A DNA stretch of 64,000 bases from an uncultured Armatimonadetes bacterium (GCA_963717145.1 OY970325.1:32001-96000); one strand, 5' to 3'; positions 31,340-54,588 are shown, numbered from the stretch's first letter. Notes: generated from the sequence alone by a model not told the origin. Numbers and translations: made by a program.

Positions 31340-31357
31340 AGTGGGTGTTCACCCCAT
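31340..31357 (+). promoter_or_regulatory. Palindromic operator copy 1 (AGTGGGTGTTCACCCCAT)
   Basis: 2 mismatches to consensus; GATGAT at 31381 (23-bp gap); ATG at 31395. Confidence 0.65.
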
Positions 31358-31394
31358 AGACACATGGCAGAGCGCTGCCGGATGATGACGCCGG

Positions 31395-31694
31395 ATGAAA
31401 CGAATCGCAGCCCTCTGTCTCTGCGGCCTGCTGGTCGGCTGTGCCACGCCAACACTCCAAGAGGAGTATTCCAAGACGAGCACGGCCGAATTGGAGCTTC
31501 GCCACGCCCGGTGCGCCCGGCTCCTGAGCCTCGAGAAACAATACATTGACTTCAGGCTTGGGCCACCGCTTGCGATGGCCATAATGGATGATGGACGCAG
31601 CGACCGCATCAAGGAAAAGGAGAAGACTGGGAAGGAATTGCTCCGTCGTGGCCAAGCGGGAGACAAGGACGCTTATCTGCCGATTCTTCAATGA
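31395..31694 (+). CDS. Small lipoprotein
   Basis: MKRIAALCLCGLLVGC lipobox. Confidence 0.7.
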   Translation: MKRIAALCLCGLLVGCATPTLQEEYSKTSTAELELRHARCARLLSLEKQYIDFRLGPPLAMAIMDDGRSDRIKEKEKTGKELLRRGQAGDKDAYLPILQ

Positions 31695-31784
31695 GGCGGG
31701 AGTGGTCTTTCGTTGTCCCCTGGCCGCCAAAGGCGGCTTGTCTATTGGCAGGCTGGGGGCAAGGACCACCCGTCTTGCCATGAT

Positions 31785-31802
31785 ATAGGGTAAACACCCC
31801 AT
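31785..31802 (+). promoter_or_regulatory. Palindromic operator copy 2 (ATAGGGTAAACACCCCAT)
   Basis: TGG-TAAATT extended -10 with hexamer at 31826-31831 (23-bp gap). Confidence 0.8.
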
Positions 31803-31881
31803 AGCGCCGCTGTCACCATCGGTGGTAAATTCTGTCCTTCCCCTAACGGGGGCAACAATCAAAACCGGAGAACGTTTCAAA

Positions 31882-32557
31882 ATGAAAACAATCAAGATCT
31901 TCACCAACCTTGGTCTCGTGGTCCTGCTGGCCGGCCTGGCCCATGCCGGTGGAATAAAGCCGGTGACCATCCCCCAACAGGTGTTGACCTACGAAGCCGG
32001 GCATTATCTTGCCGGCCAGTTGGTTCCCCTCGGGTTCGATGCCTTTGGCTACAACTACCAGGCGCGCTTGTTCCGCGGCTATTATGCCAACGCCTACCTC
32101 GGCGCGGACGGCCTGCCGCCTTACGAGGGCGACACAGAATCTTATCTCGCAGCCAATCCGAGCGCGGCCACCAAAGCTTACTGGCGGGCTCGCGACACCT
32201 GGCTGGAGATCAAGTGGAACGACGCGTGGTTGAGCAACCGGGACGCCAACAGAGACGGCTTCTTGGATCGTCACCTCGGTTTTCCGGGCTATCCGGGGTC
32301 GGGCGCATGGCTGATCAACCACCTTTGGGGTGAAGACCCCGATGGCACGCGTTGGGAGAACTTCGCACACATCGTGGCCGTGCCGTCCACCGCGGTCAAA
32401 GTCGCGGGGGTTTGGTATGACGCCTCGGGCGACGGAAATCGGACGGGAAATCTGGGATTCGTTCGCCATTGTGTTGGAGATCATCAACGATCCCGTATGG
32501 GGTCAGCATGGCAGAAACTATGTCAGTCCTGCGGGGCCAGGGTTGGGCAAGTACTAG
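31882..32557 (+). CDS. Secreted hypothetical protein (one frameshift near 32430)
   Basis: Signal peptide MKTIKIF...AHA; GGAGA SD; GFDAFGYNYQA, KWNDAWLSN, GSGAWLINH; C-terminus EIWDSFAI...GPGLGKY* in the next frame. Confidence 0.7.
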
Positions 32558-32892
32558 CCCATCAGGAAGGGTCTTCGGGCCATGGCTGGGGGGTGTTCCC
32601 CGCTGACAGTGCAAGAGCCTGTTTAAAAAACCCGCCCGGTCAGGGGACCGCTACAACGACTGTGGCCCGGACGACAGGGGCGTCACCCTCGGTTTGGCCT
32701 GTTGCTAGGCCGGGCCATTGTTTTCCTTAACCACTCAAGCGCCGCACAGGCTGACTCCCGCGCCCGCCATCATGGGGGCATTGCTCGGACGAGAAAGAGC
32801 GTTTCTAAGAGAGGTCAACTTTATCCAGTTCACCACAATCGTAGAACCCTTGGCCGGCGTGGACGAGAAAGGTCTCCAAGCCGGCTCCGGCT

Positions 32893-33540
32893 TCAGGACT
32901 GTTTCAGGGCAATCCGAAATACGACGTTGCCCGCGTCCAAGCAGCGGTCATAGACCTTCTCCAGCAACTCAAACAGATCCCTGAGCACAAGCACCTGAAC
33001 GGCCTCCCGCTCCCCGCTGTAGAGCTCATGGAGCACCGCCAACATGAGGCGGTCTGCCTCGCCTTCGATCCGACCCAGCTCTTCTTTCTGGGTCTTGACC
33101 TTCTCTATGTTGGCGCCTTGGCGCAGCTCCCTCACCATCACTCTGACCAGTTCAGCCGCCTTGGCCAGTAATCCGACGTGCCTGGACACGTCAACGCCGC
33201 AAGTGTGTTCGCCGGCGATGATGTAGTGGTCGCCGAACTTCGTCGCGGTCTTCGGAATCTTGTACAGGGCGTTGGAAAGCGCCTCAATGTCCTCCCGGTC
33301 CAGCGGCGTCATCATGGTTTTGCTGAGGTAATGTTTCAGGTCATGGGCAAAAGCTTTTTCTCGGCTCCGGGCGTTGCGCAGTTGTTCCATGACACAGACA
33401 TCTCGAGAATGCTCGCCCTCCGGGGCACTGAGCATGGCGCTCAACCTTGCGACGGCCGTGTGGGCCTCCTCCGCAGCGCCTTCGAGCAAGGCAAACAACC
33501 TCAGGTCTTTGGTAAACAGGCCTGGCAGCACGAGCTTCAT
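32893..33540 (-). CDS. DUF47 / PhoU-like phosphate transport regulator
   Basis: MTPLDREDIEALS, IEGEADRL and LEKVYDRCLDAGN motifs. Confidence 0.88.
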   Translation of the reverse strand: MKLVLPGLFTKDLRLFALLEGAAEEAHTAVARLSAMLSAPEGEHSRDVCVMEQLRNARSREKAFAHDLKHYLSKTMMTPLDREDIEALSNALYKIPKTATKFGDHYIIAGEHTCGVDVSRHVGLLAKAAELVRVMVRELRQGANIEKVKTQKEELGRIEGEADRLMLAVLHELYSGEREAVQVLVLRDLFELLEKVYDRCLDAGNVVFRIALKQS

Positions 33541-33634
33541 GTCCAGAATAATATGCCCCGGCTCCGATGGAAGCGCAGGGCCTGACTTTGATCCGACGCG
33601 CTGCGGCGACTGGATGGCATACGCAAAGAGGCGC

Positions 33635-35800: not shown

Positions 35801-35837
35801 ACCCGCTCAGGTTAGACGGAGAAAGGGGATCGCCGCC

Positions 35838-35855
35838 ATGGGGTGTTTACCCCAT
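35838..35855 (-). promoter_or_regulatory. Palindromic operator copy 3 (ATGGGGTGTTTACCCCAT)
   Basis: Minus-strand TAACCT at 35814-35809 (23-bp gap). Confidence 0.85.
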
Positions 35856-35856: not shown

Positions 35857-37339
35857 TCAGGGTCGCAGCACTCGGCAGATCTTGCGGAAGTGGTGGCCGT
35901 AGATGGAGAGAGTGACGGCCAGCGACAACTGGGAGGGGCGGCGGAGGAGCGTCCAGAGGAGCAGGCCCCAGTAGTGGAAACGCTCGCGGCCCAGAACGCC
36001 GAGGCGGAAGTTGGCATGGGCAAACGCCACGAGAGATCGCCAGGTCAGCGAGCGGGAGATCTCTCGGCGGCTCGGTATTCGCGCAGGAAGGTGCGGATCC
36101 GCTGGTAGTACGGCCTGGGCGAATAGATGTATTCCATGAGGCTCTGGTAGCCCTGGCGCAGCGTCTCCCGGTTCATCCGCGGAATAAAGTTGGTGGTCCC
36201 ATCGACATTGTCCCCGGTCGTGTCGGCCGAGCAGGCGGCCCTGGCGGTTCAGCCGTTGGTGAAGCTTGGTGCCGGGCAGGGCTTGCAGCAGGCCGACCAT
36301 CGCCGTGACGATCCCGCTTTTCTGAATGAACTCGATCTGCCGCTGAAAGATCGCGGGCGTGTCGTGGTCGAATCCGACGATGAACCCGCCCTGCACCTCC
36401 AGGCCCGCGCGCTGGATGCGCTTCACGTCGGCGACCAGGTCGCGGCCCCGGTTCTGGCGCTTGTTGCACTCGGCCAGGCTGGCCTCCTCGGGCGTCTCGA
36501 TGCCGACGAACACCTGGTCGAACCCCGCCTCGACCATCAGCCGCATCAGCTCCTCGTCGTCGGCGAGATTGATGGACGCCTCGGTGAAAAACGGGATGCC
36601 GCGCTTCCCTTTCTGCCACTGGATCAGGGCCGGCAGCAGTTCCTCCTTGAGCACCCGCTTGTTGCCGATGAAATTGTCGTCCACGAAGAAGACCGCCCCG
36701 CGCCAGCCGAGCCGGGCGAGGCCGTCCAGCTCGGCGATCACCTGCGCGGTGGTCTTGGTGCGGGGCCGATGTCCGAACATGGAGGTGATGTTGCAGAACT
36801 CGCAGTCGAACGGGCAGCCGCGCGAGAACTGCAGGCTCATGCTCGAATAGCGGCGCAGGTCGGCCAGCTCCCACAGCGGCGCCGGGGTCTGGCGGAGGTC
36901 GGGAAAGTTCGACGACGCATAGACGCGCCGGGCGCCGCCCCGTTCGAGGTCGCGCAGGAACTCCGGCAGCGTCACCTCGGCCTCGTTCAGCACGAAATGG
37001 TCCACTTCGGGAAACTGCTCGTGCTCGATGGTGAACAGCGGCCCGCCCGCCACGATGGTCTTGCCCGCCGCCCGGCAGCGCGCGATGAGCGCGCGGGCCG
37101 AGTCCCGCTGGGCGATCATCGCGCTGATGAACACGAGGTCGGCCCAGGCCAGGTCCTTCTCGCGCAGCTTGCGCACGTTCACGTCCACCAGGCGCTTCGC
37201 CCAAGGCGCGCGGCAGCATCGCGGCCACGGTCAGCAGGCCCAGCGGCGGCAGCGAGGCGCGCTTGTGGATGAACTTCAAGGCGTGCTTGAAACTCCAGAA
37301 GGTGTCCGGGAACTCCGGGTAGAGCAGCAAGGCATTCAT
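35857..37339 (-). CDS. B12-binding radical SAM protein with DUF4070 (HpnP-like superfamily; frameshifted)
   Basis: [31 protein letters not shown] and GGFIVGFD motifs. Confidence 0.9.
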
Positions 37340-38342
37340 GTTACGATCGGCCCTCCACCGGCTCGCAGGCCGCGGTAGCCCACCAGCTTCTGGCGCTGTT
37401 CATCCCAGAGCCGAAAGGTGAGCGAATTGAGGCTGGAAAACAGGGTGACGGGCTTGACGGTCTGAAACAGCGGGACCGCGTTCTGGCACTTCTCCAGGTT
37501 GTAATTGGGAATCCGTGGGTTCAGATGATGGATGTGATGAAATCCAATGCTGCCGGTGAACCATTGCAGGACCCTGGGCAGCTTGTAGAAGGAACTGCCT
37601 TGCAGGGCGGCCGCCGCGTAGTCCCAGGCCGCGTGGCGCGCCCAGCAAACGTCTTCAAACTGGTGCTGCACGTAGAACAGCCACACCCCCGCCGTGCCCG
37701 CCACCGCCATCACCGTCAACTGAATGAGCAGGTAGGCCTTGAAACCGAAGATCCCACCCAGCGCCGCCACCATGCCAGAATCGCCAGGTTGGTCCAATAC
37801 ACCGAGTGACGCTCTCGTTTGCCGGCGCGGGGCGAGGCAAAGCGCTGCTTCACCAGGAACAGGAAGAGCGGCGCCAGCACGAAGAGCACGACCGGGTTGC
37901 GGGCCAGCCGATAGGCCAGCCGTCTCCAGCGAGAGGCGTCCAGGTATTCCTGAACGGTCAACGTCCACACATCGCCCGGGCCGCGCCGGTCCAGATCGCC
38001 GGCGCTCCAGTGGTGGAGGGCATGTTCCCATCGCCAGTGAAAGTAAGGCGTGAAAGTCAGCACGCCGGTGATGAAGCCGAGCCGGTCCGCGGCTCGTTGG
38101 GACCTGAAAAAGGAACCGTGCCCGCAGTCGTGGAAGATGATGAAGACCCGCACCAGGAACCCGGCCGCCAGGATGGCCAGCGGCAGGGCGAGCCAATAGG
38201 AAACGGCCAGGCTGAGGTACATCAGGTACCAGAGGACCGCATACGGAACGAGCGTGTTGACCACCTGCCAGAGGCTGCGCCCGACGGTGGGTGTCTGGTA
38301 GGGAGCCACGAGCGTCTTCCAGGGTTGCTCGGTATGGTTCAC
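37336..38342 (-). CDS. Membrane fatty-acid desaturase (Des-like; one frameshift)
   Basis: His boxes HDCGH, HALHH and HHIHH, plus FYVQHQF; GTG start at 38342. Confidence 0.92.
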
Positions 38343-38377
38343 CGTCTCACCATAACGCAGCGGACTGGCAGATCGCC

Positions 38378-38395
38378 ATGGGGTGTTCACCCCAT
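38378..38395 (-). promoter_or_regulatory. Palindromic operator copy 4 (ATGGGGTGTTCACCCCAT), with an adjacent degenerate site at 38397-38414
   Basis: Minus-strand TATGGT at 38354-38349 (23-bp gap); the GTG start follows 6 nt later. Confidence 0.85.
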
Positions 38396-38413
38396 CGGGG
38401 GTGGCATCACCCC

Positions 38414-40035
38414 TCACGCGCAGGAGTTCTGGTCCCCGGATGGTGAGGCGTTGCGCAGGCTGATCGTTTGGTTTCCGACCCGCCCTTGCGTCCAGCCGGT
38501 GGCAGACCGGGCTTCACGGTCCGGCTCCTCAAGTCCGGCATCCAGCATCCGGGCCGGGAGTTCGGGCTTGCGGGTCAAAGTGCGCCGGCGAAAGGGACTG
38601 CAAAGCAGCTTGACGATGTCGGACGTCTTCATGTGGCGGCCGAAGGCGCGCAGGAGCTTCCAGGTTCGGATCGGGCGCCTGAGAACCCGGTGGAGGAAGA
38701 GCCAACCGTAACCTTTGGCCCGCAGCCGATTCACCACCGCGCTGGGCAGGGTGGTGGGGTCGATATCCGAGCACTTGAACCACTTGTGCCAATCCCGTTC
38801 GTCGTCAATGATCCCGCGCGCCACATACTCCTGCCAGAGCGGCGTCCCGCGATAGGCGCACAAGCGATTGAAGCCGAAGGTGTCCAGCTCCAGGCGCGCC
38901 GCGAAGCGGAAGCTTTCCGCGATGTCCTCTTCGGTTTCATCGGGCGAGCCGACGACAAAGAACCCGTGGACCCTGGCGATGCCCTGCCGCTTGGCTTCCC
39001 GGACGGCGTGCTCCACCTGGGCGGGGGTCTGCTTCTTGTTGAGCCGGTCCAGCACTTTTTGCGTGCCCGCCTCCACGCCAAAGGCCAGGAAATTGCAGCC
39101 GGCCTGGCGCAGGAGCGGCAGTTGCTCAATTCCGACCGAATCGACGCGGCCTTCGCAGCCCCAGTGAAACTCCAGTTTGCGTTCGATGATGCCGCGGCAA
39201 ATCGCCTCAATGCGCTGGCGGTTGATGAGGAAATGGTCGTCGGTCAGGTAGATCGAGCGGTAGCCCAGGTCGTTGAGCTCCTGCAACTCGCCCAGGACAT
39301 GCTCCGGCGAACGGCTTCGCAGCCGGCCCTCGCCCAGGGACGGGATATCGCAGTAGATGCAGGAGTAGGGGCAGCCGCGCGAGGTTTGCACGGTGCAGAA
39401 CTTGTCCAGCGAGAGGACCGCCGGAACATCCAGGGGCAGGGACTCGATGTAGTCGATCGGCAGACTGGTTCGGTCGGGATACGGAAACCGGTCCAGGTCC
39501 TGAAGGAGGGGGCGGGGGGCGTTGGTAACGATGGTCCCGTCGCGCCGCCAGACCAGCCCCGCCACGGAGCCGGGGTCATCGAGGTGGTCCAAATAGTCCG
39601 GCAGGAGCTCCTCGCCTTCACCCACCCCCACGCAGTCGATGTCGGGACAGTCCCCCAGAATGCGGTCCGCATTCAAGGTGGCGAAGGCTCCGCCGACGAT
39701 GATCGGGAGTCTTCGGCGCCTCGGCCTTGAGTCCGCCGGGCCATGCTCTTGACCGCCGGGTAGGTGGTGGTCGAGAGAAAGGAGAGCGCGATCACGTCAG
39801 GTTGTTCTTGTGCAACCGCCTGCGCGATGTGCTCCGCCTTCATCTGCGGGTGGCAGGTATCAAACATCCGCACCTGGTGCCCCCGTTGGCGCAGCACCGG
39901 CGCGAGCGTCTGGATCCCCAGGGGCGGAAACGCCATCACCTTGACCCGGCCGTTGTCCGACTTCGACCGATCCAGGCGCTCGGGAAGCACCCGGCAGAAG
40001 TTTTCATCGCCCACGTAAACGAGGAACGTATTCAT
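38414..40035 (-). CDS. B12-binding radical SAM protein (frameshifted near 39700)
   Basis: FPPLGIQTLA, TSRGCPYSCIYC, YLTDDHF and FGVEAG motifs. Confidence 0.9.
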
Positions 40036-40124
40036 GGGCTGGATCTTCGTCTCTGGCCACGGCCGCAAACGGTTGCGCCGCAAACCCCAAGCGCCAGGTT
40101 CTTTAGCTGGTGGCCGCGTTTCAT
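40032..40124 (-). CDS. Putative leaderless leader peptide (30 aa)
   Basis: MKRGHQLKNLALGVCGATVCGRGQRRRSSP*; ATG 6 nt after TACTCT; TGA overlaps the ATG at 40035. Confidence 0.5.
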   Translation of the reverse strand: MKRGHQLKNLALGVCGATVCGRGQRRRSSP

Positions 40125-40159
40125 AACGCCAGAGTATCGAGGGGACCCCGCGGGGCGCC

Positions 40160-40177
40160 ATGGGGTGTTTACCCCAT
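40160..40177 (-). promoter_or_regulatory. Palindromic operator copy 5 (ATGGGGTGTTTACCCCAT)
   Basis: Minus-strand TACTCT at 40136-40131 (23-bp gap). Confidence 0.85.
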
Positions 40178-40972
40178 TGCGACTGCCTGGCGCAGGGCCG
40201 GCAGGCGAGGGGGAGGTTTGATCCGGTTTGATTGGGTTTGATTGGGTTTGATCGGGTTGGATGGGAGGAGGCGATGGCTGCAGGAGCGCCCCCGGCCGGT
40301 CAGGGTACCCGGCTCCAAGTCGTGGTTGATCTCGGTTACCAAGGCCGCGATCTCCCGGGCTTTTTCGCCGCCACCGAAGGCCTGGGCGAGAGGCTGCACC
40401 TCCAAAGCGGCCCAGATGGGGGCGGTGGCGCGCCGTTTCTCCTCCTTTGTTTCGCGGTCGCGCTCCTGTGCATCCAAACGATCCTTTTCCCGCTCCCAGC
40501 GCTCCTGCTCGATCTGGAGCCGGGCGGCGTGACCGTCGTTTTGACGCAACTGACTGAGGGCCTGGAGGAATTCGCGGAGGCGTTGCCAGCGCTCACGGGG
40601 GTCTGAGACCTCCTTGAGGAGCGCCTCGGAGGCGCGCGCCAGTTCGACGGCAAGGAGGGTGGCGAAGCGATCACTCAGGGGCCGCTCTTGGGCGCCGGGC
40701 TCCAGGTCCTCGGATTGCTCGGTCAGGCGCTGGACCAGGTCGCAGGATTCCTGGTGCTGGAGCCAGTCGAGGTAGCCGCCCTGTCTCCACTCGGAGAGGT
40801 TCTGCTCGCTGATTGGGCGGCTGCCGAACTGGGACTTGAGGACTTGGTGCACGTCGGGCAGGCCGTTGAGCCAGTCCACGAGTTGTCGGGCCTGTTCACC
40901 GTCATCGAGGCGGTGGTTCAAATCGAGGCGGATGTGTTTTGGGAGCCGGGCGATTTTGCCGTTGCGAGTCAT
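40169..40972 (-). CDS. Hypothetical protein with DUF3486/Mu gp27-like N-terminus
   Basis: MTRNGKIARLPKHIRLDLNHRL...ISEQNLSEWRQGGYLDW, then coiled coil; family call is by resemblance. Confidence 0.6.
   Translation of the reverse strand: MTRNGKIARLPKHIRLDLNHRLDDGEQARQLVDWLNGLPDVHQVLKSQFGSRPISEQNLSEWRQGGYLDWLQHQESCDLVQRLTEQSEDLEPGAQERPLSDRFATLLAVELARASEALLKEVSDPRERWQRLREFLQALSQLRQNDGHAARLQIEQERWEREKDRLDAQERDRETKEEKRRATAPIWAALEVQPLAQAFGGGEKAREIAALVTEINHDLEPGTLTGRGRSCSHRLLPSNPIKPNQTQSNRIKPPPRLPALRQAVAMG
40215..40264. repeat. 10-bp tandem repeat (GGTTTGATTG-like, 5 copies)
   Basis: GGTTTGATCC GGTTTGATTG GGTTTGATTG GGTTTGATCG GGTTGGATGG. Confidence 0.9.
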
Positions 40973-42136: not shown

Positions 42137-42170
42137 GGGAGCAGGATACGGGAGACGCCGTGCGGATGCT

Positions 42171-42188
42171 ATGGGGTGTTTACCCCAT
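42171..42188 (-). promoter_or_regulatory. Palindromic operator copy 6 (ATGGGGTGTTTACCCCAT)
   Basis: Minus-strand TATCCT at 42148-42143 (22-bp gap). Confidence 0.85.
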
Positions 42189-42326: not shown

Positions 42327-43024
42327 CTAAACAATGGTCAACTGGACGCTGCTTTCGACGATGCCCGCCGAGATGGCGTAGCGGGTGAGGCCGGCGGTGT
42401 CGTGGATGTTGAGCTTTTGCATCACACTCTGCCGGTGTTTTTCGACGGTTTTGACGCTGATGCCCAGCTCGGCGGCGACCTGTTTGTTGGGCTGCCCTTC
42501 GGCGATGAGTTGGAGGACCTCCGCTTCGCGCGAACTGAGGCGGGGGGCTCCTTTCTTGACCCTGTTTCCCGTGAGCCGGGGCTGACCCCTCCGGGTGGCG
42601 ACAGGCGCTGGGCAATGGCGGGGCTGAAATAGGTCTTGCCTTTCTGGACTTCGCGGATGGCCTCGACCAGGAAGTGAGCGGAGGTTTGTTTGATCAGGTA
42701 TCCGACCGCGCCCAAGGCCACCACTTGCTCGACGTAAGCGTCATCACTGTGGGCCGAGAGAATGAGCACCTTGGTGTCCGGGACGGCCTGGCGAATCTGC
42801 CGGGTGGCTTCCAAGCCATTGAGCAGGGGCATGGCGATGTCCATCACGATCACGGCCGGGCGAAGTTTCTTGGTCAGTTCCACGGCCTGGCGGCCGGTCT
42901 CGGCTTCGCCGACCACCTGGATATCCCCTTCGGCGTCCAACAAGGTGCGGAGTCCTTCCCGAACGATCATATGGTCTTCGGCCAGCAGGACGGTGATAGG
43001 TTTCGTAGCGGTGACATGTTTCAT
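42327..43024 (-). CDS. NarL/LuxR-family response regulator (frameshift between receiver and HTH)
   Basis: VLLAEDHMIVREGL, VMDIAMPLLNGLEA; other frame gives LSSREAEVLQLIAEG...ELGISVKTVEKHRQSVMQKL, TAG at 42327. Confidence 0.92.
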
Positions 43025-44645: not shown

Positions 44646-44660
44646 GGGCGTTCCTTTCGA

Positions 44661-44990: not shown

Positions 44991-46753
44991 TTTTTGTTCC
45001 CTGGTTTGGAGCTGCCGCGCGGGCCGCCTGCCCCGCCGGTGGCATCGGCCTGGCGCAGACGGGCCAATTCGGTCCGCTCGGCGTTCAGCACGCGCGTGCG
45101 CGTGCCGGCCTGCTCGTCCAAGCGCCGCAGTTCCACTTCGTCGCCCTCCTGCTCGGAGCGCAGCTCGGCGATTTGCCGTTCGAGCGCGGCGCGTTTGCGC
45201 GCCAGGTCGCGCTGGCGGCGGGCGGCTTCCTGCCGGGCGGCCAGGGCTTCGGCCTTTTCGCGGGCGGTTTGCGCCACCCGGGCCGCGCCGGTGAGGACGC
45301 CGCTGGGACCGATGTAGGCGTCCACCAGGTCAATGCCCCGGTTGGAAATGAGGAATTCGCGGACCTGGTTGGAGTGGGCCATGCCGCGGGCTTTGAGCAC
45401 GTAGAGCACGCGATTGCGTTCGCCGTTGCCTTCGAAGTCCTGCAAGAGCAGCCAGGCGTCCATGAGCGAGGACATGGCGATTTCACTTTGTTGCAGGGCG
45501 TGGCCGCCGTGGGTCAGGCTGGTAAAGAGCGAGGTGATTTGGCCGCCCTTGAGGAAGTCAATCAGCCGCGTGACCATGCCCTTGGTTTCGGTGTCGGTGC
45601 CGGCGACCAGCAGGCTGGTGATGGGGTCCACAATGACGAGGGCGGGCTGAAAGGCGGCGATCTCCTTGAACATGGTGGCCAGGTGCATTTCCAGGCCGTA
45701 GAGGGTGGGCCGGGCGGAGTGAAAGCGCAGCCAGCCGCGCTGGACCAGCGGCCCCAGGCGCAAGCCGATGGAACGCATGTTGCGGATGATCTGGTTGGGC
45801 GATTCCTCGAACGAGAAGAAGAGCACGCGCTCGCCGCGGCGGGCGGCGGCCTGGGCAATACAGGCGCCGACGCTGGTCTTGCCGGTGCCGGCGGTGCCCG
45901 TGAGCAGAATGCTGCTGCCGCGAAAGAAGCCGCGCCCGCTGAGCATGGCGTCGAGCCGCGGGATGCCGGTGGCAATCCGCTCGCTGGACACCTTGTGGTT
46001 GAGCCCCAGCGAGGTGATGGGCAGGACGCTGAGGCCCTGGTCGCCGATGAGGAAGGGAAATTCGTTGGTGCCGTGCAGGGCGCCGCGATATTTCACCACC
46101 CGCAGATGGCGCGTGGCAATCTGGTCATGGACCCGATGATCGAGCAGGATGACGCAGTCGGACACGTATTCCTCCAGCCCGTGGCGGGTGAGCTGCTCGC
46201 GGCCGCGCTCGGCCGTAATGACGGCGGTCACGCCCTTGTCCTTGAGCCAGCGGAAGAGCCGGCGCAGTTCGGCGCGCAGGATGGCTTCGTTAGGCAGGCC
46301 GGCAAACAGCGCTTCCAGGGTGTCCAGCACCACGCGCCGGGCGCCGATGGAATCGATCGCGTGATTGAGGCGGACGAACAACCCTTCCAGGTCATACTCG
46401 CCGGTCTCCTGGATTTCACTGCGCTCGATGTACACGTAATCGAGCACGATTTTTTTGCGCCGGACCAGGCCCGCCAGATCAAAGCCGAGCGATGCGACGT
46501 TGGCCGTCAACTCGGCTTCCGTCTCCTCGAAGGCGATGAACACGCCCGGCTCGCCGAACTGCGCGGCGCCGCGCACGAGGAATTCGGCGGCCAGCAGGGT
46601 TTTGCCGCAGCCCGCGCCGCCGCAGACCAGGGTGGGCCGCCCGCGCGGCAACCCGCCGCCGGTGATTTCGTCGAGACCCTGGATGCCCGTCGGACACTTG
46701 GGCAAACCAGGTGTCGGGGAGGTGGTCGAAGGAATGGTTCTGTTCATCGTCAT
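44987..46753 (-). CDS. kaiC: Circadian clock protein KaiC (KaiC2-like, with C-terminal coiled coil)
   Basis: Two RecA-like domains with Walker A GGAGCGKT and GTAGTGKT, two FEE motifs, phosphosite region [21 protein letters not shown]. Confidence 0.96.
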
Positions 46754-46779
46754 TCAAGGTGTGGTTTTAGCGGACTGCA

Positions 46780-48197
46780 TCAGCGGGTCCCCCCCTCGGC
46801 TGGGCTGCCATCGAAAGGAATCTGCGCCCGGATGGTGGTGCCTTGGCCCGGTGCGGATTCGACGCTGAAGTTGCCGCCGACCATCTCCACCCGTTCTCTC
46901 ATGCCGAGCAGCCCCAGGCGCTTGTTCCTCTTGGCGTGCAACACGCGCTGCACCTCGAAGGATTTGCCGTCGTCTGTGATTTCCATGCGAATGGCGTCCG
47001 GGAGTTTCTGGAGGCTCACTTCCACCCGGCTGGCCTGCGCATGCCGGGCGACATTGGTCAGCGCTTCCTGGGCGACGCGATAGAGGACCGTGCGCTTGGC
47101 ACTGTCCAATTCGCTCAATCCGGCCGGAAGTAAAGGTCGTGAAGTGAATGCGGATACCCGTCCGCTTCGTGAAGTCCTTCATGAAGGAATGAAGGCGTGG
47201 CAATCAGTCCCAGGTCGTCCAGGACCGTCGGGCGCAGTTCGCGGGCGAACTGATGCACGATGTCCACCGACTTCTCCACCAGCCGTTGCGTCCGGGCGAT
47301 CGTTTTCTCCGAGCCCTTGGGGTTGACCCGGGCCTCGCTGGGCCAAGGTCGCCAGATGGACATTGATGCCCACCAGGGTCTGGGCGATTTCATCATGCAG
47401 CTCGCGGCTGATGCGCTTTCGTTCTTCCTCCTGCGCCTGCAGAATCTGATGGGACAGATGCCGCAGTTGTTCCTGCATGTGGCGCGACTGCTCCAACAAC
47501 TGGCTTTGGTGTTGCTCGCTTTTCTTGAGGGCTTCCTCCACCGCCTGCCGCCGGACAATTTCCCGCTCGCAACTCCCGGTTCGCAACCGCCAGAGCCTCC
47601 AGGCGGCGTTGCGCCTCCTCCGCCTGCTTGAGGGCGGTGATGTCCGAGACCGCCACCCGGCACCATTTCCGCGGACCGCTGAGGGAGATGGCGGAGGTGG
47701 CGTGGAAGTTCGCCCAGAAGGTGCGTGCCGTCCTCGTTCCGCAGCGGCGCCTCGCAGACCTGTTTTCCGGGCCCGGCGAAGACCTCTTCCAGGAAGGCCA
47801 GAAAGACCGGCTGGCTCGCCGGGGCCACAAAACGCGGCAAGCGCCGGTTGATGAGCCGGGACCGTTCCACGCCGAGCAAGGCGGCTCCCGTCAGGTTCAC
47901 CTCCAGGATCCGGCCCTGTTCATCCAGGGAGAAATAGCCGACCGGGGCGAAATCGTAGAGGTCGGTGTATTTCTCCAGCAGCGCCTCCATCCGGTCCCGG
48001 GCTTCCTGGAGCTCGGCGTTCTGCATCTCCAGTTCGACCTGGTGGACCTGCAATTCGTGGAGCAGCCGCTGGGGGTCGGCTGCCGACTTCGGATCTCCAG
48101 CCTCGGACGCTGATTTCCGCCGGTGCTCCCGCAGCCGGGCTTCGGCGCGGCGGCGCAGTTCGGCGGCATCGGCTGAGGTGTTTGACTTTCTCTTCAT
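46780..48197 (-). CDS. PAS-domain histidine kinase, HisKA_3 (frameshifted)
   Basis: HELQVHQVELEMQNAEL, LYDFAPVGY, ERKRISRELHDEIAQ, LYRVAQEALTNVARHA, LGLLGMRER. Confidence 0.9.
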
Positions 48198-48296
48198 GGC
48201 GCGGTCTTTTCCAGGTGATGGCAGCAATGAGTCATCAGTGATCAGCTGGTCACTCGGTCCGGCCCCAGGACCCGGGAAAGGATCTCCTGCAGTTTG

Positions 48297-49957
48297 TCAC
48301 CTGTCAAAGGGTTTCGCCAGGACGCCCTTGAACCCGTAGCGTTCAGGTTCCAGAACCACGGGATCGTTGGCGTATCCGCTCATGACAATGGCCTTCACGG
48401 CCGGGTCAATCTTGAGCAGCGCCTGGATCGCCTCCTGGCCCCCAACGCCAGCGCGAACCGTCAAATCCAGGAGGACCGCATCAAAGGGACGCCCCTGGTC
48501 CTTCGCGCTTCCGTAAACCTCGACGGCCCTCTGTCCATCCTCCACCAGTTCCACCTCGTGGCCCATCCGCTGGAGCAACGCTCCCAACCAGCTTTCCTCA
48601 CCCCTTCCTCGTCATCCATCACCAGGATCCTTCCCGGCCGCGGAAGGCTCGCTCGGCACCGATGCTTTCTCTTCGCCGAGCAACTTCCGGGAAGCGGGAA
48701 GGTGGATGTGGAAGGTGGTCCCCACCCCCAGCTCTGACTCCACGGCAATCGCTCCTCCATGTTTCTGAATGACCGTATGGCAGATCGTCAGCCCCAGACC
48801 CATGCCCTTTTGATCCCCCCTCTGCTTCGTCGAGAAATAGGGATCAAAGATCTTCGGCAGCACCTCCTTCGCAATGCCGCCGCCCTGGTCGGCAATGCTC
48901 ACCCGAACGTAATCCCCCGGCGGCAGGGAAGGATTTTCATGGGATCCCAGAACCACATTCTCCGCCCGGACGGAGATCACTCCTCCCTCCGGCATCGCTT
49001 CCCGCGCATTCAGGACCAGGTTCCGGATGACCTGTCCGATCTGCCCCGCGTCCACCTCCGCCAGCCAGAGATCCTCCGCCAGGGAGAATTCACACCGCAC
49101 CCGGGAACCGCTCAAGGCCGGCCGGACGGATTCCTGGATCACTCCGGACAGGCAGGTCGGCTTCCGGACCGGCGCGCCTCCTTTGGCAAAGGTGATGAGC
49201 TGCTGGGTCAAGCCTCGGGCCAGTCAAGGCGGTCTGCTTCGCCTCCTCCAGACGATGCGCCAACTCCTCGCCGGGCGGGATGAGCGTCTGGGCCAGTTCG
49301 AGGTTGAGGAGGATCACCGTGAGCAGATTGTTGAAATCATGGGCAATGCCGCCCGCCAGAATCCCCGTGGACTCCAGCTTGTTCAGAATGAGACGATCCT
49401 CCTCGGCCCGCTTGCGCTCGGTGATGTCCGTCAAGCACCGCGCGGCACTCCCGCCCCGACGCCGCCACCGCCGCTTCGATCCGCACCTCGACCGGGGGCT
49501 TGCCTTCCTTGAGGAGCGTCACCTCGCAGAACTCCCTGGCCTTGCTCTCGAAGACCTTCGTGAGGAAGGCGTTGAAAGCGGGCAGGTCGGCCGCGGAAAC
49601 GTAAAGCCCGAAGCGCCGCTTGACCAACCGGGATCGTTCGATCCCCAGCAGGCTGGCGCGGTGAGGTTGGCCTCGCGGATCGTCCCCTCGCGGTCGAGGG
49701 TCAGGTAGCCCACCGGGGCGAAATCATAGAGGTCGCTGTATTTTTCCAGCCCCGCCTCCATCTCGTCCCGGGCTTTCTGGAGTTCCTCGTTTTGCATCTC
49801 CAGCTCGATCTGGTGGACCTGCAATTCGTGGACGAGGCGCTGCGTGTCGGCTTCGGTTCGGGCCTGGCCCGTTTCCGGGTGCTGCTCCCGCAGGCGCTCT
49901 TCGGCGCGGCGGCGCAGTTCGGCGGCATCGGGTGAGAGCGTTCGGTTTCTTTTGCAT
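48297..49957 (-). CDS. Hybrid PAS histidine kinase/receiver (frameshifted)
   Basis: HQIELEMQNEEL, LAGGIAHDFNNLL, NLVLNAREAMP, FDPYFSTK, GLGL; receiver ILVMDDE...LLDLT...KPF. Confidence 0.9.
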
Positions 49958-49998
49958 GGCGGGTGCTTTCCAGTGAGTTGCCGGTCATCAGTGATCGA

Positions 49999-52673
49999 CT
50001 ACGGCCCTGGTCCCTTCCTTCGCCTCCGCTTCGCGGCTTGGTCCGCGACCCGCTTCTCCAAACCGGCCTGCTTCGCCCGCAACTTCGCCTCCAGCGTCTT
50101 GGCCGCGGTGATGTCCGCGAAGGTGATCACGACGCCGTCAATCCGGTCGTCCAGCGTGCGGTAGGGCATGATGCGCACGGTAAACCAGCGGCCGTCGCGC
50201 GCGCCAATCGGTTTTTCCGCCGAGGCCAGCGTCCGCAGCACCTCCCGCGCATCGTCGGCCAGTTCCGGGTAGCGCAGCTCCGAGGCCAGGTCGGTGATGG
50301 GCCGGCCCACGTCGGCCGGGATGAGCTTGATGATTTTCGTCGCCTGGGGGGTGAACCGCCGCACGTTGAGATCGTTGTCCAGAAACAGGGTGGCGATATC
50401 CGTGCTGTTGAGCAGGTTCTTCATGTCGTTGCTGGCCCGCGAAAGCTCGTCCACCTTGGCCTGCAACTCGGTGTTGAGCGTCTGGAGCTCCTCGTTCATC
50501 GATTGCATCTCCTCCTTCGAGGTGGTGAGTTCCTCGTTGGTGGACTGCAGTTCTTCATTGGTGGATTGCAGTTCCTCGTTGGCGGACCGGAGTTCCTCCT
50601 GCGAGGTCTGCATCTCTTCGTGGGTGGCCCGCGCCTCGGCGCGGACCTGCAGGAGTTCCTGCTCCAGTTCCGCCAGCCGCGCGCTGCGGGCGTGAGCCTT
50701 GGGCGGCCGGCCCGCCGCTTTGGCGGCCTCGGGCGCGGCCACGTCGGTGAAAACGATCATCACCAACCCCTGCAGCGGCCCGGGTTCCTCGAGTCGCTGG
50801 ACGGTCACATCCACGCACTGCTCGCCGCCGTTGGTCCCGACCTTGAGTCCGTGCAGCGCCACGCTGCCCTTTTGCCGGAGCGCTTTCTGGAAGGCGCCGG
50901 ACAGTTCGTAGCGCAGACCTTCGCGGGCCATGGCGAAGATGTTCCAGTTGGCCTTGCCGGCGGCCGGTTCCAGGTATTTGCCGGTGCGGCCGCTGATGTA
51001 GAAGATGTCGCCCTTGTCATTGACGAGCACGGCCGGCGGGGCGTAACGCTGCAGGACCAACTGATCCGCCAGGGACTGGAGACTGAGCGGCGGTTTCGCC
51101 GCCGGCCGCGCCTCCGGCCCGCCGGGCGGGGCCGCGCTAAAGGACGAGGGAAACTCGACCGGCTCCGGTCGCAGGCCGGACTCCGTCCGCCGAAAGATCC
51201 TGCGATTTGCCGCTGAGCGGGGCAAACAGGTCGGTGAAGCCGCCAATCGTCTCCGCGCTGCCGAGAAACAAAATGCCGCCGGGACTGAGGCTGTAGTGAA
51301 ACAGCGGAATCAGTTTCTTCTGCACCTCCGGGGCCAGATAGATCAGCAGGTTGCGGCAGCTCAGGATGTCCAGCTTGGTAAAGGGCGGATCCATGATGAG
51401 ATTCTGCGGCGCAAAGATCACCATCTCGCGAATCTCTTTGCGCACCCGGTAGCCGCGTTCTTCCTTGGCAAAGAACCGGCTCAGCCGCTCCGGCGACACG
51501 TCGGCGGCGATGTTGTCCGGAAAGACGCCCTGGCGGGCCTTGTCAATCGCGTCCCGGTCCAGGTCGGTGGCGAAGATCTGCAGGGCGAAATTCCCCTTGG
51601 GCTTGGCCTGCTCGACCGCCTCCTTGAACACGATGGCCAGGGAATAGGCCTCCTCCCCGGTGGAGCAGCCGGGCACCCACGCCCGCAGGGCCTGGCCGGG
51701 CGACCGGCTCGCGAGCAGCGCCGGAATGGCCTGCGTCGCGCAACTGCTCCCAGGCGGCGGGATCGCGGAAGAAGTTCGTCACCCCGATCAGCAACTCCTT
51801 GAAGAGCAGATCCAGCTCCTGCGAGTTCTCCTGCAAGTAGCGGACATAGGCGGCCATCTTGTTGATCTGGTGAATGCCCATGCGGCGCTCGATCCGGCGG
51901 TAGAGGGTGTTCCGCTTGTAGAGGGAAAAGTCGTGGCCGGTGTGGGCGCGCAGCAGGATGACCACCTTTTCCAGGGCGCTCTGCGTCTTGTCTTCCAGGG
52001 CCACTTCCGTCCGGGCGATGAGCGGGGTGCGCTGCAGATAGGCGATGATCTTCCCCGGCAGCTCGTCCACCGGGGCCACGATATCCGCCAGCCCGGCGTC
52101 AATCGCGCTGCGCGGCATGCCGTCGAATTTGGCCGTCGCCGGCTCCTGCACCAGCACCACGCCCGCCTTCTCCTTGATGGCGCGCAGGCCCAGCGTGCCG
52201 TCGGAGCCCATGCCGGAAAGAATCACGCCGATGCTGTGCTCCTGCTGGTCCTGCGCCAGGGAGCGGAGGAAGAAATCAATCGGCAGGCGCAGCCCGCGCG
52301 GCGCCGCCGGCTCGAGCAAGTGCAGGACCCCGTGCAGGATGGACATGTCCTTGTTCGGCGGGATCACATAGACGCAGTCCGGCCGCACCCGGGTGCGATC
52401 CTTGACCTGGATGACTTTCATGCCGGTGGCGCGCTGGAGCAGTTCGGGCATGATCCCCTTGTGCGTCGGGTCCAGGTGCTGGACGATGACAAACGCCATG
52501 CCGCTGCCCGCCGGCACGCGCCCCAGGAACTGCTCCAGGGCTTCGAGTCCCCCGGCGGAGGCGCCGATGCCGACGATGGGGAACGAGTACGCCTTTCGGG
52601 GAGGCGGGTGTTGCGCGGCAAGCAGCCTGGGCAGGCTTTTTCGGTCGCCGTTTCGGTGCAGATTTCGTTTCAT
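49999..52673 (-). CDS. CheB methylesterase/CheR methyltransferase/PAS fusion (frameshifted)
   Basis: CheB triad motifs GASAGG, VQHL, GMGSDG; CheR GCSTGEEAYS and SCRNLLIY; NEELQST heptad repeats; C-terminal PAS. Confidence 0.93.
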
Positions 52674-52891
52674 GATCCTGTCTCCTCCGGCCGCGAATCT
52701 GGCTCTGTCGCAGCGGCGCGTCCGGCTGGCTCAACTGGACACGGGTCTTCATCGCCGTGAAGCGAGTGTGCTCGATGGAATCGTTGGTCTCAACACGAAA
52801 GAGGGCCGGCTATCGCCTCCCCGGAGGTCTCGGTCGCAAGAGCCAAAGTGCCCATACGCGGGAGTTTATGGCTCGGAGCAACGTCCGAGCA

Positions 52892-52909
52892 ATGGGGTGA
52901 ACACCCCAT
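52892..52909. promoter_or_regulatory. Palindromic operator copy 7 (ATGGGGTGAACACCCCAT), bidirectional
   Basis: Minus-strand TAAACT at 52868-52863 (23-bp gap, toward cheBR-kai); plus-strand TAAATT at 52932-52937 (22-bp gap). Confidence 0.85.
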
Positions 52910-53040
52910 AGCGGCAGGTTTGGTCATGCCCTAAATTCTCCGCCAGTCGGCCAAATCCGGAAACGAGTGATCCTTAGATGTGCGCGCGAGCAATCCCGAC
53001 CTGGAATTGTCGTCCAGCCACCTGCCAACCCAAAAAGCTT

Positions 53041-53550
53041 ATGGAACAGCCCGGCCTGATGGAACATCGCCGCACGCGGAGCGGGAGCGAGCGTTCCTCG
53101 GACGAATCGCGGTATCTATTGAGCGTCGTCCTGGTCTTTGAAGATCTCGCAACGCGCGGATGGGCGGCGCAAGCTTTTGAGCGGGTGCAGCGGGCCAGCC
53201 AAATGCAAATTCAGAGCACCGAATGGCGCATCCGCCGCCTCCTGGACGAGCAGGAATTTCCAGAGGCGGTCGGGGCGGCGGCTCGGGCCGACGTCCTTGC
53301 GGTGGCGCTCCGTGCCGTCGAAGAGCCGCCCATCCCGCTCTGTGTGTGGATCGATGCCTGGCTGCCACGCCGGCTCCAGCGTCCGGGCGCCTTGCTGGCA
53401 TGGATCGGCCGGCTCGAACGACCGGGGGCCGGACCTTCGAGCGCCCAACAGTATCTGCAGGCGGTGGCGCGCCGGGCCGGCCTGGATTTTCTGCCAAGGG
53501 AAGCCCGCCCCGAGCGAAGGGTTGATCTGTGTTCAGAATACACCCTTTAG
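53041..53550 (+). CDS. Hypothetical alpha/beta protein, possibly a degenerate receiver-like fold (start may be 52978)
   Basis: SVVLVFED...AARADVLAVAL...WIDAWL...YLQAVARRAGLDF. Confidence 0.6.
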   Translation: MEQPGLMEHRRTRSGSERSSDESRYLLSVVLVFEDLATRGWAAQAFERVQRASQMQIQSTEWRIRRLLDEQEFPEAVGAAARADVLAVALRAVEEPPIPLCVWIDAWLPRRLQRPGALLAWIGRLERPGAGPSSAQQYLQAVARRAGLDFLPREARPERRVDLCSEYTL

Positions 53551-53571
53551 GCTCAGAGCCGAGTCCGAACA

Positions 53572-53589
53572 ATGGGGTGTTCAGCCCAT
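53572..53589 (+). promoter_or_regulatory. Palindromic operator copy 8 (ATGGGGTGTTCAGCCCAT)
   Basis: 1 mismatch; TAAATG at 53613 (23-bp gap) in an AT-rich stretch before the DUF4197 gene. Confidence 0.75.
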
Positions 53590-53653
53590 AGGCCGATCTC
53601 CGGCCCCAGGTGTAAATGTGATATATTGATTCATGTTGAAAGGCGTACCGAAT

Positions 53654-54403
53654 ATGAGAACCTTGCTCTCCTGCCTGGCAGCGATTCCATTCCTGCTCAC
53701 ACCGTGCGCCCACGGCGCGGGTTGGCTCGACCGACTCGGCTTCGGCACCAAGACAACCAACCCACCTTCGGGGATCGCCGCCAGCGCGCTCTCCCAGGAC
53801 CAAATGGTTGGCGGACTCAAAGAAGCCCTGGGCAAGGGGGTCGAGCATGCGGTCGGCTCGCTCGGCAAGCCGGACGGCTTCCTCAAAGACACGAGCGTCA
53901 AGATTCCCCTGCCGGCCACACTGAAGAAGGTGGAAAGCTCCCTGCGGATGCTGGGTCAGAAACAACTGGCCGATGACTTCGTGACGACCCTGAATCGCGC
54001 GGCGGAACAGGCCGTGCCCGAAGCGGCGGGCGTGCTGGGCCAGTCCATCCAGCAGATGAGCCTGACTGACGCCAAAGCGATCCTGACCGGCACGAACAAC
54101 GCCGCCACCCAATACTTCCGGCGGACCAGCGAGACCAATCTCTACGAGCGGTTCCTCCCCATCGTGGCCAAGGCCACCGAACAAACCGGCGTGACCAGCG
54201 CCTACAAAAAGATGGTGGGCCAGGCCAGTTTCGCCGGCTCGCTCCTGGGTCAGGACGCGGGGAACCTCGACGCCTACGTGACGCACAAGACGCTCGACGG
54301 GTTGTTCGTGAAGATCGCCGACGAGGAGAAACGCATTCGGGAGAATCCGGTGGCCCGCACCACCGATTTGCTGCAAAAGGTGTTCGGCGCTGTTCAGAAA
54401 TGA
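53654..54403 (+). CDS. Secreted DUF4197 protein
   Basis: Signal peptide; GLKEALGKG, LNRAAEQAVP, AATQYF and EEKRIRENPVARTTDLLQKVFG motifs. Confidence 0.9.
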   Translation: MRTLLSCLAAIPFLLTPCAHGAGWLDRLGFGTKTTNPPSGIAASALSQDQMVGGLKEALGKGVEHAVGSLGKPDGFLKDTSVKIPLPATLKKVESSLRMLGQKQLADDFVTTLNRAAEQAVPEAAGVLGQSIQQMSLTDAKAILTGTNNAATQYFRRTSETNLYERFLPIVAKATEQTGVTSAYKKMVGQASFAGSLLGQDAGNLDAYVTHKTLDGLFVKIADEEKRIRENPVARTTDLLQKVFGAVQK

Positions 54404-54570
54404 CGGGCGGGTGGCTCGGCCCGAGCTGCTGCGAGACGACCTCCGTTGGCGCGCGTGGGCGGGGCGACCCGCGCCCAGCCGCTCTGGCGGGTAAGTGACA
54501 GAGGGCCGAAGCGCCTCGCCCCCGCCAGCAATCCGCCCCGCGTTGTCGGCGAACACCGGCGCGAGGGCAA

Positions 54571-54588
54571 GGTAGGGTTTTACCCCAT
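54571..54588 (+). promoter_or_regulatory. Palindromic operator copy 9, degenerate (GGTAGGGTTTTACCCCAT)
   Basis: Intact promoter-proximal half TACCCCATAGC; GAGACT at 54611 (22-bp gap); ATG at 54632. Confidence 0.6.

Follow-up and report, generated by a model that had tools for sequence, protein, structure and literature searches.

The window analyzed here is a 64,000-nucleotide (nt) stretch (OY970325.1:32001-96000, assembly GCA_963717145.1) of a 5.37-Mb contig ascribed to an uncultured Armatimonadetes bacterium, and positions are counted from its first letter unless a contig position is given. Between 31340 and 54588, it carries a set of short palindromic sites together with a ~10-kb co-directional string of minus-strand genes (52673 to 42327), which is headed by a CheB-CheR-PAS_10 gene and continues, according to Pfam, with HATPase and receiver pieces, the histidine kinase HKc, kaiC, two kaiB genes, a further histidine kinase (HK404), and, last, a NarL/LuxR-type response regulator (coordinates are given in Table 1). 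The original prediction, made from this sequence alone, held that the sites are operators of the regulator and that they provide a readable output pathway for a non-cyanobacterial Kai system.

The nine copies of ATGGGGT-N4-ACCCCAT on which that prediction was built resolve into two architectures. A pattern search of the window returned five exact copies (present in 0 of 100 dinucleotide-preserving shuffles), and three further sites match this 18-bp form (form 1) with one or two mismatches; the count of nine therefore stands if up to two mismatches and a second architecture are allowed, but not as nine copies of one 18-mer. The ninth copy, placed at 54571, is a site but a poor fit to form 1: positions 54572-54588 are an exact instance of a 17-bp second architecture (form 2), GTAGGGT-N3-ACCCCAT. 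The N4 spacer of form 1 is also conserved (GTTY, complement RAAC), and its G and C tracts, as read from the sequence, lie 10 bp apart, centre to centre. As had been noticed, there is no copy in the first 31 kb, where the search found just a three-mismatch match at 20698. When the nine sites were turned into a position weight matrix, it found no further site in the window (eight of the nine score 22 to 35 bits, and the best of 20 matches elsewhere scores 18.7). Across the 5.37-Mb contig, all seven matches with at most one mismatch are confined to window positions 31785-53589, and all three form-2 matches lie at contig 86572, 96023, and 96261; form 1 has no copy with at most one mismatch elsewhere in the contig.

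Every one of the -10-like hexamers originally listed lies 22 or 23 nt from its site, and the site at 52892 has such a hexamer on both sides: the minus side faces the string that runs from the CheB-CheR gene through kai to the regulator, and the plus side faces a 190-amino-acid (aa) open reading frame (ORF; 52978-53550). Read by eye and unscored, none of the 10 promoters has a TTGACA-like hexamer 17 nt upstream of its -10-like hexamer. The proposed extension of the site toward the promoter, CCCCAT(A/G)GC, also holds, with RGC following ACCCCAT in 8 of 10 promoter-oriented reads (AGA stands there instead at 31340, as does TGC at 52892 when read toward its minus side). Promoters of an alternative sigma factor were considered and rejected, as the 22 nt from ACCCCAT to the -10 hexamer would be too long for a -35/-10 pair.

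The same geometry is found in other genomes. Scanning one genome per species with the pattern ATGGGGTGTTYACCCCAT yielded at least 129 stretches, and 79 loci were taken among the matches listed; 66 of these 79 carry Verrucomicrobiota-lineage titles, and several have two to three sites per 12 kb. When up to one mismatch is allowed, five of these Verrucomicrobiota-titled genomes contain 4, 8, 12, 5, and 21 sites (a reversed control pattern gave 0). Metagenome-assembled genomes (MAGs) labelled as Verrucomicrobiota, as well as metagenome contigs, hold both forms at the same spacing. A TAnnnT hexamer occurs at offset 21-24 in 121 of 349 orientation contexts of form 1 and in 51 of 76 of form 2 (on the ACCCCAT side only), compared with 1.5% of 20,000 random positions. 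In a form-2 set of 44, the hexamer lies exactly 22 nt past the ACCCCAT half in 27 cases and past the other half in none; because the side of the hexamer differs by form, form 1 would serve one or both directions and form 2 only one. This fixed distance, kept across genomes, agrees with the activator position that the original prediction had assigned to the site. Outside the window, 17 of 73 candidate targets that the promoter faces have their start codon 5 to 11 nt after the hexamer, most often 6 nt, a soft count because the choice of ORFs favored early starts; in the window, in-frame or candidate start codons stand 6 to 8 nt past hexamers at 31381-31397, 38340-38354, 40122-40136, 42134-42148, and 52853-52868. 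About a quarter of candidate targets thus look leaderless, as these distances suggest, and the desaturase promoter at 38378 is a candidate for this type.

The regulator that ends the string has a receiver domain (PF00072, E 7.7e-28, 42422-43051) and a GerE helix-turn-helix (PF00196, E 2.3e-21, 42330-42569), which lies in another frame; the two domains are not in one uninterrupted ORF, a frame change falling between 42599 and 42560 (in a G6 run at 42542-42547 when aligned against one orthologue). Orthologues in loci L105, L310, and L122 are single intact ORFs with both domains. Among solved structures, VraR (5hev, E 6.1e-40) is the closest relative, and NarL, DesR, and DevR are also found. In tblastn searches of the 79 listed motif loci, the window receiver matches 27 (up to 75% identity in the best matches), the GerE domain matches 22 (up to 84%), and the ATPase part of HKc matches 17; in motif-bearing genomes, HKc (387 to 403 aa) and the regulator (225 to 239 aa) are adjacent, intact, single ORFs.

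Co-occurrence was assessed in 231 genomes of the phylum (Verrucomicrobiota) of G403, a genome selected for carrying the motif, by calling the regulator at E ≤ 1e-62 along with exact form 1 and exact form 2. Regulator and motif occur together in 12 genomes, the regulator alone in 10, the motif alone in 4, and neither in 205 (odds ratio, 61.5; Fisher P = 2.7e-11, treating genomes as independent though they are related); among genomes with at least two sites, 10 of 11 have the regulator. Across 400 genomes from the phylum to which the contig belongs, identity to the regulator reaches 51% at best, versus 76% for the window, and no motif cluster was found in them, with at most a single one-mismatch site each. 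Around the regulator itself (~10 kb on each side), an exact site occurs in 17 of 40 loci. Of 16 motif-positive loci, 14 belong to the subfamily with the sequence LQLIAEG, which includes the window's regulator, and of 15 loci with LQLVAEG only 2 are motif-positive, although the recognition helix, ISIKTVEKHR, is almost invariant in both. Genome-level co-occurrence thus favors the regulator as the probable binder, as had been proposed. The proposed positive autoregulation is likewise supported by predicted sites that face the kinase-regulator operon, or a truncated kinase paralogue heading it, in G401 to G405 and G706, and by 52892 in the window. In several genomes (e.g., L065:5179-5973 and L111:353-1114), this HKc paralogue, with sensor and HisKA_3 parts and no ATPase domain, immediately precedes the full-length kinase, with the operator directed at the paralogue. 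The HKc orthologue at L105:6793-7953 has a weak N-terminal RsbU_N match (23.1 bits versus a cutoff of 25.5), which hints at a partner-switching-type input to the partner kinase.

The kai genes of the string have features of a KaiC2-type system. KaiC matches PF06745 (E 2.1e-103) in two stretches, giving the double KaiC/RecA-like ATPase domains, and its residues 16-567 align best to PDB entry 8DBA (E 3.8e-195), which the available portion of PMC10076222 describes as the Rhodobacter sphaeroides KaiC, which ends in an added coiled coil of ~50 aa, as is typical of kaiC2 proteins. The alignment of the 588-aa protein includes residues beyond 500, and the window's KaiC therefore has the C-terminal extension. 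Its AMSSLMD stretch stands opposite GLSSLMD of 8DBA (residue numbering not reconciled), which gives a Ser-Ser phosphorylation pair in place of Ser-Thr; the phosphorylation pair is given as S413/S414, and as two serines for KaiC2, in the parts seen of PMC10076222 and PMC5520375. Two KaiB ORFs and then a PAS-HisKA_3 kinase follow kaiC, as in kaiB/PAS-kinase operons, and no KaiA family match was obtained among 35 ORFs scanned in the cluster. A complex prediction that combined the CI part of KaiC (residues 1-260), two KaiB, and the N-terminal 190 residues of HK404 scored 0.01, which speaks neither for nor against binding.

Linkage of this module to the regulator is recurrent, although most kinase-regulator pairs lack kai. 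The kai module lies beside the kinase-regulator pair in 3 of 40 regulator loci, with KaiC 77 to 82% identical to that of the window and in three different arrangements: between kinase and regulator, as in the window (G443), upstream of the pair (G642), and downstream of it (G696). In a metagenome scan that retained 80 loci with KaiC 76 to 90% identical to the window's, the regulator is present in 23 loci and an exact operator of either form in 26. An operator (at most one mismatch, with form 2 counted when promoter oriented) lies within 350 nt upstream of kaiC in 19 of the 65 loci with at least 350 nt of upstream sequence, and HKc lies directly upstream of kaiC, as in the window, in 13 of 65. 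Directly downstream of HK404, the regulator is found in 10 of 49 loci (those in which HK404 is complete and followed by 700 nt or more of sequence), and other HK404 loci have HKc plus the regulator in that place. The most compact case, L310, is a five-gene unit of kaiC, two kaiB genes, kinase, and regulator between two exact sites, its coding regions overlapping or abutting. The Kai link that had been proposed is thus supported by recurrent synteny, within a family of kinase-regulator pairs most of which lack kai; the regulator of the kai operon has, beyond what the original prediction had read, a second HisKA_3 kinase, HKc, as its usual partner. The four-gene kai module also exists without this regulator in 11 loci of the contig's own phylum (L033 to L043), where kaiB follows in the same order in 11 of 11 and the kinase in 10 of 11, the transmitter type varies, and no exact motif was found nearby. 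More generally, a kai module with two different kaiB genes and a PAS kinase is conserved across phyla, its PAS part being kept and its transmitter variable.

Predicted targets are diverse. Pfam searches of 57 promoter-oriented candidates from other genomes identified two kinds of fatty-acid desaturase, ice-binding-like proteins (3), DUF3300 (2), DUF2934, P-type ATPases (2), class-I aldolase (2), transaldolase, Hsp70, an RRM protein, YflT, DUF948, PqiA, OmpA, a multihaem cytochrome, single-domain receivers (5), PAS kinases (3), the B12-radical-SAM gene, and the regulator itself. The regulon amounts to 4 to 21 sites per genome, its contents vary between genomes, and its predicted content suggests a cold or night-type stress program. 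With regard to the targets in the window, an intact orthologue of the desaturase scores 435 bits on the NCBIfam Delta5 DesA model, under the 500-bit cutoff, and the 79-aa protein of the operon at 35838 recurs beside the motif in 10 loci. Orthologues of the glycosyltransferase have form 1 upstream in L074 and L104 and form 2 in L046, showing that the two forms interchange. Just upstream (on the minus strand) of the operator at 40160, tandem GGTTTGAT-like units occupy 40195-40260, within the low-complexity C-terminal end of an ORF (40169-40972; 267 aa) whose family is unknown. The DXS gene and the first operator are separated by a tRNA gene (73.5 bits, 30749-30821), which could mark the edge of the cluster.

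Table 1. Operator sites, candidate targets, and genes of the window, with frame changes, followed by the compact locus L310 in its own coordinates
Feature	Position	Strand	Remarks
Operator, form 1, two mismatches (AGTGGGTGTTCACCCCAT)	31340..31357	+	23 nt to GATGAT (31381-31386)
Candidate target of 31340: lipoprotein-like ORF, 99 aa	31395-31694	+	ATG at 31395
Operator, form 1, one mismatch	31785..31802	+	23 nt to TAAATT (31826-31831)
Candidate target of 31785: secreted 282-aa ORF	from 31882	+	C-terminal translation looks out of frame
Operator, form 1, exact	35838..35855	-	23 nt to TAACCT (35809-35814)
Candidate target of 35838: operon of 79-aa, 603-aa, and 264-aa proteins	35693->32893	-	264-aa protein: weak PhoU_div match
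B12-binding/radical SAM/DUF4070 protein, 443 aa	35857..37188	-	Intact; downstream of desaturase gene
Operator, form 1, exact	38378..38395	-	23 nt to TATGGT (38349-38354); GTG 6 nt beyond
Candidate target of 38378: fatty-acid desaturase	~38342->37336	-	1 frame change, ~37780 (near 37775-37785)
Operator, form 1, exact	40160..40177	-	23 nt to TACTCT (40131-40136)
Candidate target of 40160: B12-binding radical SAM gene	~40083->38414	-	1 frame change, ~39710 (near 39706-39718)
Operator, form 1, exact, directly downstream of regulator gene	42171..42188	-	22 nt to TATCCT (42143-42148)
Candidate target of 42171: small membrane-protein region	~42136->41869	-	ATG 6 nt past TATCCT
NarL/LuxR-type response regulator, frame-split	42327..43024	-	Receiver aligned 43039-42599; GerE 42560-42330; 1 frame change, 42599-42560
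HK404: Kai-associated PAS-HisKA_3-HATPase kinase, 404 aa	43080..44294	-	Intact
Second kaiB, 87 aa	44291..44554	-	
First kaiB, 109 aa	44661..44990	-	
kaiC, 588 aa	44987..46753	-	Intact; C-terminal extension
HKc: usual partner kinase of the regulator family (PAS, HisKA_3, HATPase)	46780..48227	-	Frame-disrupted; at least 3 frame changes, plus stop 47179-47181 in long-alignment frame
CheB-CheR-PAS_10 gene (head of string) with HATPase and receiver pieces	48297..52673	-	HATPase 48612-49211; receiver 48297-48587; 2 frame changes, near 51734 and 51202
Operator, form 1, exact, between divergent genes	52892..52909	both	TAAACT 23 nt on minus side; TAAATT 22 nt on plus side
Operator, form 1, one mismatch	53572..53589	+	23 nt to TAAATG
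Candidate target of 53572: DUF4197 secreted protein	53633-54403	+	
Operator, form 2 (GTAGGGTTTTACCCCAT)	54572..54588	+	22 nt to GAGACT (54611-54616)
Candidate target of 54572: 770-aa-type GT4 glycosyltransferase	54632-56921	+	3 frame changes, near 55145, 55814, and 56585
L310: exact site	566-583		
L310: kaiC	628-2388		
L310: first kaiB	2385-2711		
L310: second kaiB	2711-3079		
L310: PAS-HisKA_3 kinase	3076-4320		
L310: REC-GerE regulator	4311-4994		
L310: second exact site	5089		

The cluster does not resemble the remainder of its contig. The first ~97 kb, including the whole window, lie at a tetranucleotide distance of 0.22 to 0.34 (contig median, 0.085), and composition turns native between contig 96 and 98 kb; the DXS encoded in the window is 75 to 77% identical to those of two Verrucomicrobiota-labelled MAGs but only 43 to 47% identical to the contig's own family, and a second DXS of the contig, at 4.86 Mb, is 47% identical to it. 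By these measures, the window is Verrucomicrobiota-like DNA, joined to the contig either by misassembly or by wholesale acquisition; no tRNA or integrase was found at the ~97-kb compositional junction. Because the window is foreign to the rest of the contig, the whole-contig scan serves as a 5.27-Mb negative control and not as a census of the regulon. The two form-2 operators at contig 96023 and 96261 (L244:4023 and 4261) lie just past the window's end and at this compositional junction, and the latter is followed 22 nt downstream by TAATGT and then by an ORF with a VPDSG-CTERM motif (L244:4397-5017). Elsewhere, the last ~6 kb of the contig are also compositionally atypical, and contig 4900000-4970000 is a second strong tetranucleotide outlier (~70 kb), unlike both the native contig and the 97-kb segment.

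Genes of the regulon in the window are also disrupted, with at least 11 frame changes over ~25 kb (37336-56921) when aligned with intact orthologues. Still intact are KaiC, both KaiB, HK404, one radical-SAM gene, and the DUF4197 gene, and five operators are perfect; over the 25 kb that precede the regulon, a rough ORF call based on GC content at third codon positions revealed no gene that is obviously split. Homopolymer errors are insufficient to account for all frame changes, since only that of the regulator lies in a run of at least five. A search of public sequencing runs gave 20 runs with word shares of at most 0.15, and four runs aligned at 85% likeness yielded short contig pieces of relatives; in all four, contigs have one base fewer at 39732/39733, near the frame change of the B12-radical-SAM gene, whereas no piece among those listed spanned the regulator's frame change or revealed transcription starts or strand. 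The frame changes may reflect either consensus error in a minority or mixed population or recent decay of the regulon.

Taken together, we consider it probable that both palindrome forms are the operator of the NarL/LuxR-type regulator, acting at promoters apparently without a -35 hexamer and fed by HisKA_3 kinases. The phosphorylated regulator dimer would sit at about -36 to -53, next to or overlapping the -35 position, and would recruit sigma-70 RNA polymerase to promoters that appear to lack a -35 hexamer of their own. The soluble partner kinase HKc, adjacent in most genomes, would feed the regulator, and in a subset of genomes including the window, the PAS-HisKA_3 kinase that closes the kaiC-kaiB-kaiB series would be a second feed. 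Because operators are found at the kinase-regulator genes and, in genomes that have one, at the kai operon, the circuit would have positive self-feedback. What the comparative sequence evidence shows is the sites, their spacing and conservation, and their co-occurrence and synteny with the regulator and kai; that the regulator binds, that it activates and does not repress, that phosphate is transferred, and that KaiBC has any control over the kinase is inferred. More tentative, and perhaps somewhat less likely to be true than false, is the fuller proposition that a non-cyanobacterial KaiBC timer lacking KaiA has here its complete output circuit, one that amplifies itself, in which the KaiC/KaiB state would gate the kinase, the kinase would phosphorylate the regulator, and the regulator, from an 18-bp dyad at about -44, would activate the kai operon along with a portable regulon rich in desaturases, ice-binding-like proteins, an RRM protein, and envelope genes. 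With a second kinase, independent of Kai, feeding into this regulator as well, one operator would then receive both time and stress signals.

Several observations weigh against these proposals. The frame-shifted regulator of the window implies that the local circuit may be dead, and a number of the remaining points could favor an account in which the operator is real but is bound by another protein from the true host genome, the regulator and kai being frequent members of its regulon. Sites precede both the kinase-regulator and the kai operons, which would make these genes co-occur with the motif as targets; because regulator genes are themselves regulon members, co-occurrence alone leaves room for an unlinked binder. 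Exact sites are absent from 10 of 22 regulator-positive genomes and, within 10 kb, from 23 of 40 regulator loci; four motif-positive genomes lack the regulator at the threshold used; and the recognition helix is nearly invariant even in motif-less loci, where a search revealed no alternative palindrome and no shared 10-mer beyond coding-sequence conservation. Furthermore, sampling was centered on the motif carrier G403 and covers phylogenetically related genomes, and, as the rest of the contig is another organism, the fragment's host genome lies outside the comparison. Yet the regulator is the only DNA-binding domain repeatedly found beside the sites, the association holds at the level of genomes, above all in those with multiple sites, and half-sites one helical turn apart suit a LuxR-type dimer, such that a different binder appears unlikely. 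We similarly think it improbable that the regulator is a repressor, with a site that blocks polymerase and expression when the regulator is unphosphorylated: a site abutting the -35 position is also used by repressors, but promoters with no -35-like hexamer, by eye, in any of the 10 reads should be weak unaided, and spacing strict to 1 to 2 nt together with a one-sided form 2 would be typical of face-of-helix contacts with polymerase. That the palindrome is no operator at all, but a repeat of mobile or repetitive extragenic palindromic (REP)-like type, or else a hairpin at which RNA is terminated or processed, has very little to recommend it. The 7-bp arms could pair in RNA, and the sites at 35838, 38378, and 40160 each lie within 25 nt of the stop codon of the preceding gene; however, the flanks differ from one site to another, no T-run follows the arms, form 2 pairs poorly and nonetheless keeps a -10 hexamer at exactly 22 nt on a single side, sites are found ahead of first genes and in the gaps separating divergent genes, and the remaining 5.27 Mb of the contig have no copies.

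A more serious competitor, though on balance still rather unlikely, accepts the regulator as binder and makes the kai operon mere cargo, one more stress-induced target with no Kai output. The operators upstream of kaiC clearly make kai a predicted target; strict TAnnnT follows at 7 of these 19 sites, with several others of the GATnnT type by eye. Members of the regulator family are mostly paired with their own kinase, with no kai genes alongside; tblastn found kaiC or kaiB in 0 of the 79 listed motif loci; and many close KaiC relatives (e.g., L270, L272, and L275) have neither regulator nor motif within their stretches of up to 20 kb. In the 11 loci of another phylum, moreover, the module of kaiC, two kaiB genes, and PAS kinase stands alone or with other transmitters, and the literature, in the part of PMC5520375 consulted, proposes a PAS kinase as an input to KaiBC. 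Against an inert kai operon stands the type of its kinase, HisKA_3, which is the one that partners NarL regulators. The regulator directly follows this kinase in 10 of 49 loci, some without any other matching kinase gene, the stop codon of the kinase and the start codon of the regulator overlap in L310, and the linkage survives three different gene orders.

Regulons of this general kind are known. DosR/DevR, which governs the dormancy regulon of Mycobacterium tuberculosis, is a NarL-family regulator fed by the HisKA_3 kinases DosS and DosT, which sense through GAF domains; its box is a dyad of ~18 to 20 bp with GGG...CCC arms, the promoter-proximal box abuts the -35 element, and its regulon, a mixed stress set of a few dozen genes, includes its own operon. 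The system described here has in common with it the NarL-type regulator, two HisKA_3 kinases, a GGG/CCC dyad by the -35 position, and sites at its own operon, and DevR is among the solved relatives of the window regulator (3c3w, E 2.8e-25), though VraR is closer (E 6e-40). It differs in box sequence and arm spacing, in its one-sided 17-bp variant, in phylum, in a PAS or unassigned N-terminal sensor in place of GAF, and in having Kai proteins in the operon. In Bacillus subtilis, the HisKA_3 kinase DesK and the NarL-type regulator DesR activate the Delta5 desaturase gene des through an inverted repeat; kinase and regulator types and an inverted repeat at a desaturase promoter recur here (DesR 4ldz, E 4.1e-28), but the DesA score is under the cutoff, the kinases have no Pfam membrane-sensor domain, and the regulon is much larger and linked to Kai. 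With VraSR/LiaSR, the likeness lies in VraR as the closest solved relative of the regulator and in kinase matches to the LiaS, NarX, and MctS models of NCBIfam; the model scores are far under equivalog cutoffs, the sensor parts are different, and, to our knowledge, the VraSR/LiaSR operator is unrelated to the operator here.

With respect to Kai systems, the cyanobacterial kinase SasA senses KaiC through a KaiB-like domain, and its partner RpaA is of the OmpR type. The present circuit would work alike, from Kai state to histidine kinase, response regulator, and a regulon that includes kaiBC, but with a PAS kinase and a NarL-type regulator in these roles. Kai homologues are widespread outside cyanobacteria, where central Kai output factors, SasA and RpaA among them, are stated to be missing in the accessible text of PMC5520375. 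An operon of kaiC, kaiB, and a PAS histidine kinase gene occurs in Rhodopseudomonas palustris and Rhodobacter sphaeroides (PMC4794148, in part). These purple-bacterial operons share with the window a C-terminally extended KaiC and kaiB with a PAS histidine kinase in the same operon; they differ from it in that the window has two kaiB genes, a HisKA_3 transmitter, a NarL-type regulator in or next to the operon, and a defined operator upstream of kaiC and other genes. For the purple bacteria, the sections seen of PMC4794148, PMC10076222, and PMC5520375 name no regulator, operator, or target genes.

Both elements of the system, a NarL-type regulon with a dyad operator and a kaiC-kaiB-PAS/HK (histidine kinase) operon, are therefore of known kinds. 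Literature searches, which left subscription-only papers and supplements outside their scope, found neither the two-form operator nor its regulon, and no recurrent case in which a KaiBC module is joined to a DNA-binding regulator whose targets can be read. Even without Kai, the findings point to a conserved regulon with a two-form operator and likely leaderless promoters in a little-studied phylum. With Kai, a kinase and a DNA-binding regulator within the kai operon, a sharp operator, and a target list legible in the sequences of dozens of genomes would open non-cyanobacterial Kai outputs to binding, phosphotransfer, and time-series expression experiments. If the timer proposition is true, the regulon may represent a daily cold or night program in soil and wetland Verrucomicrobiota.

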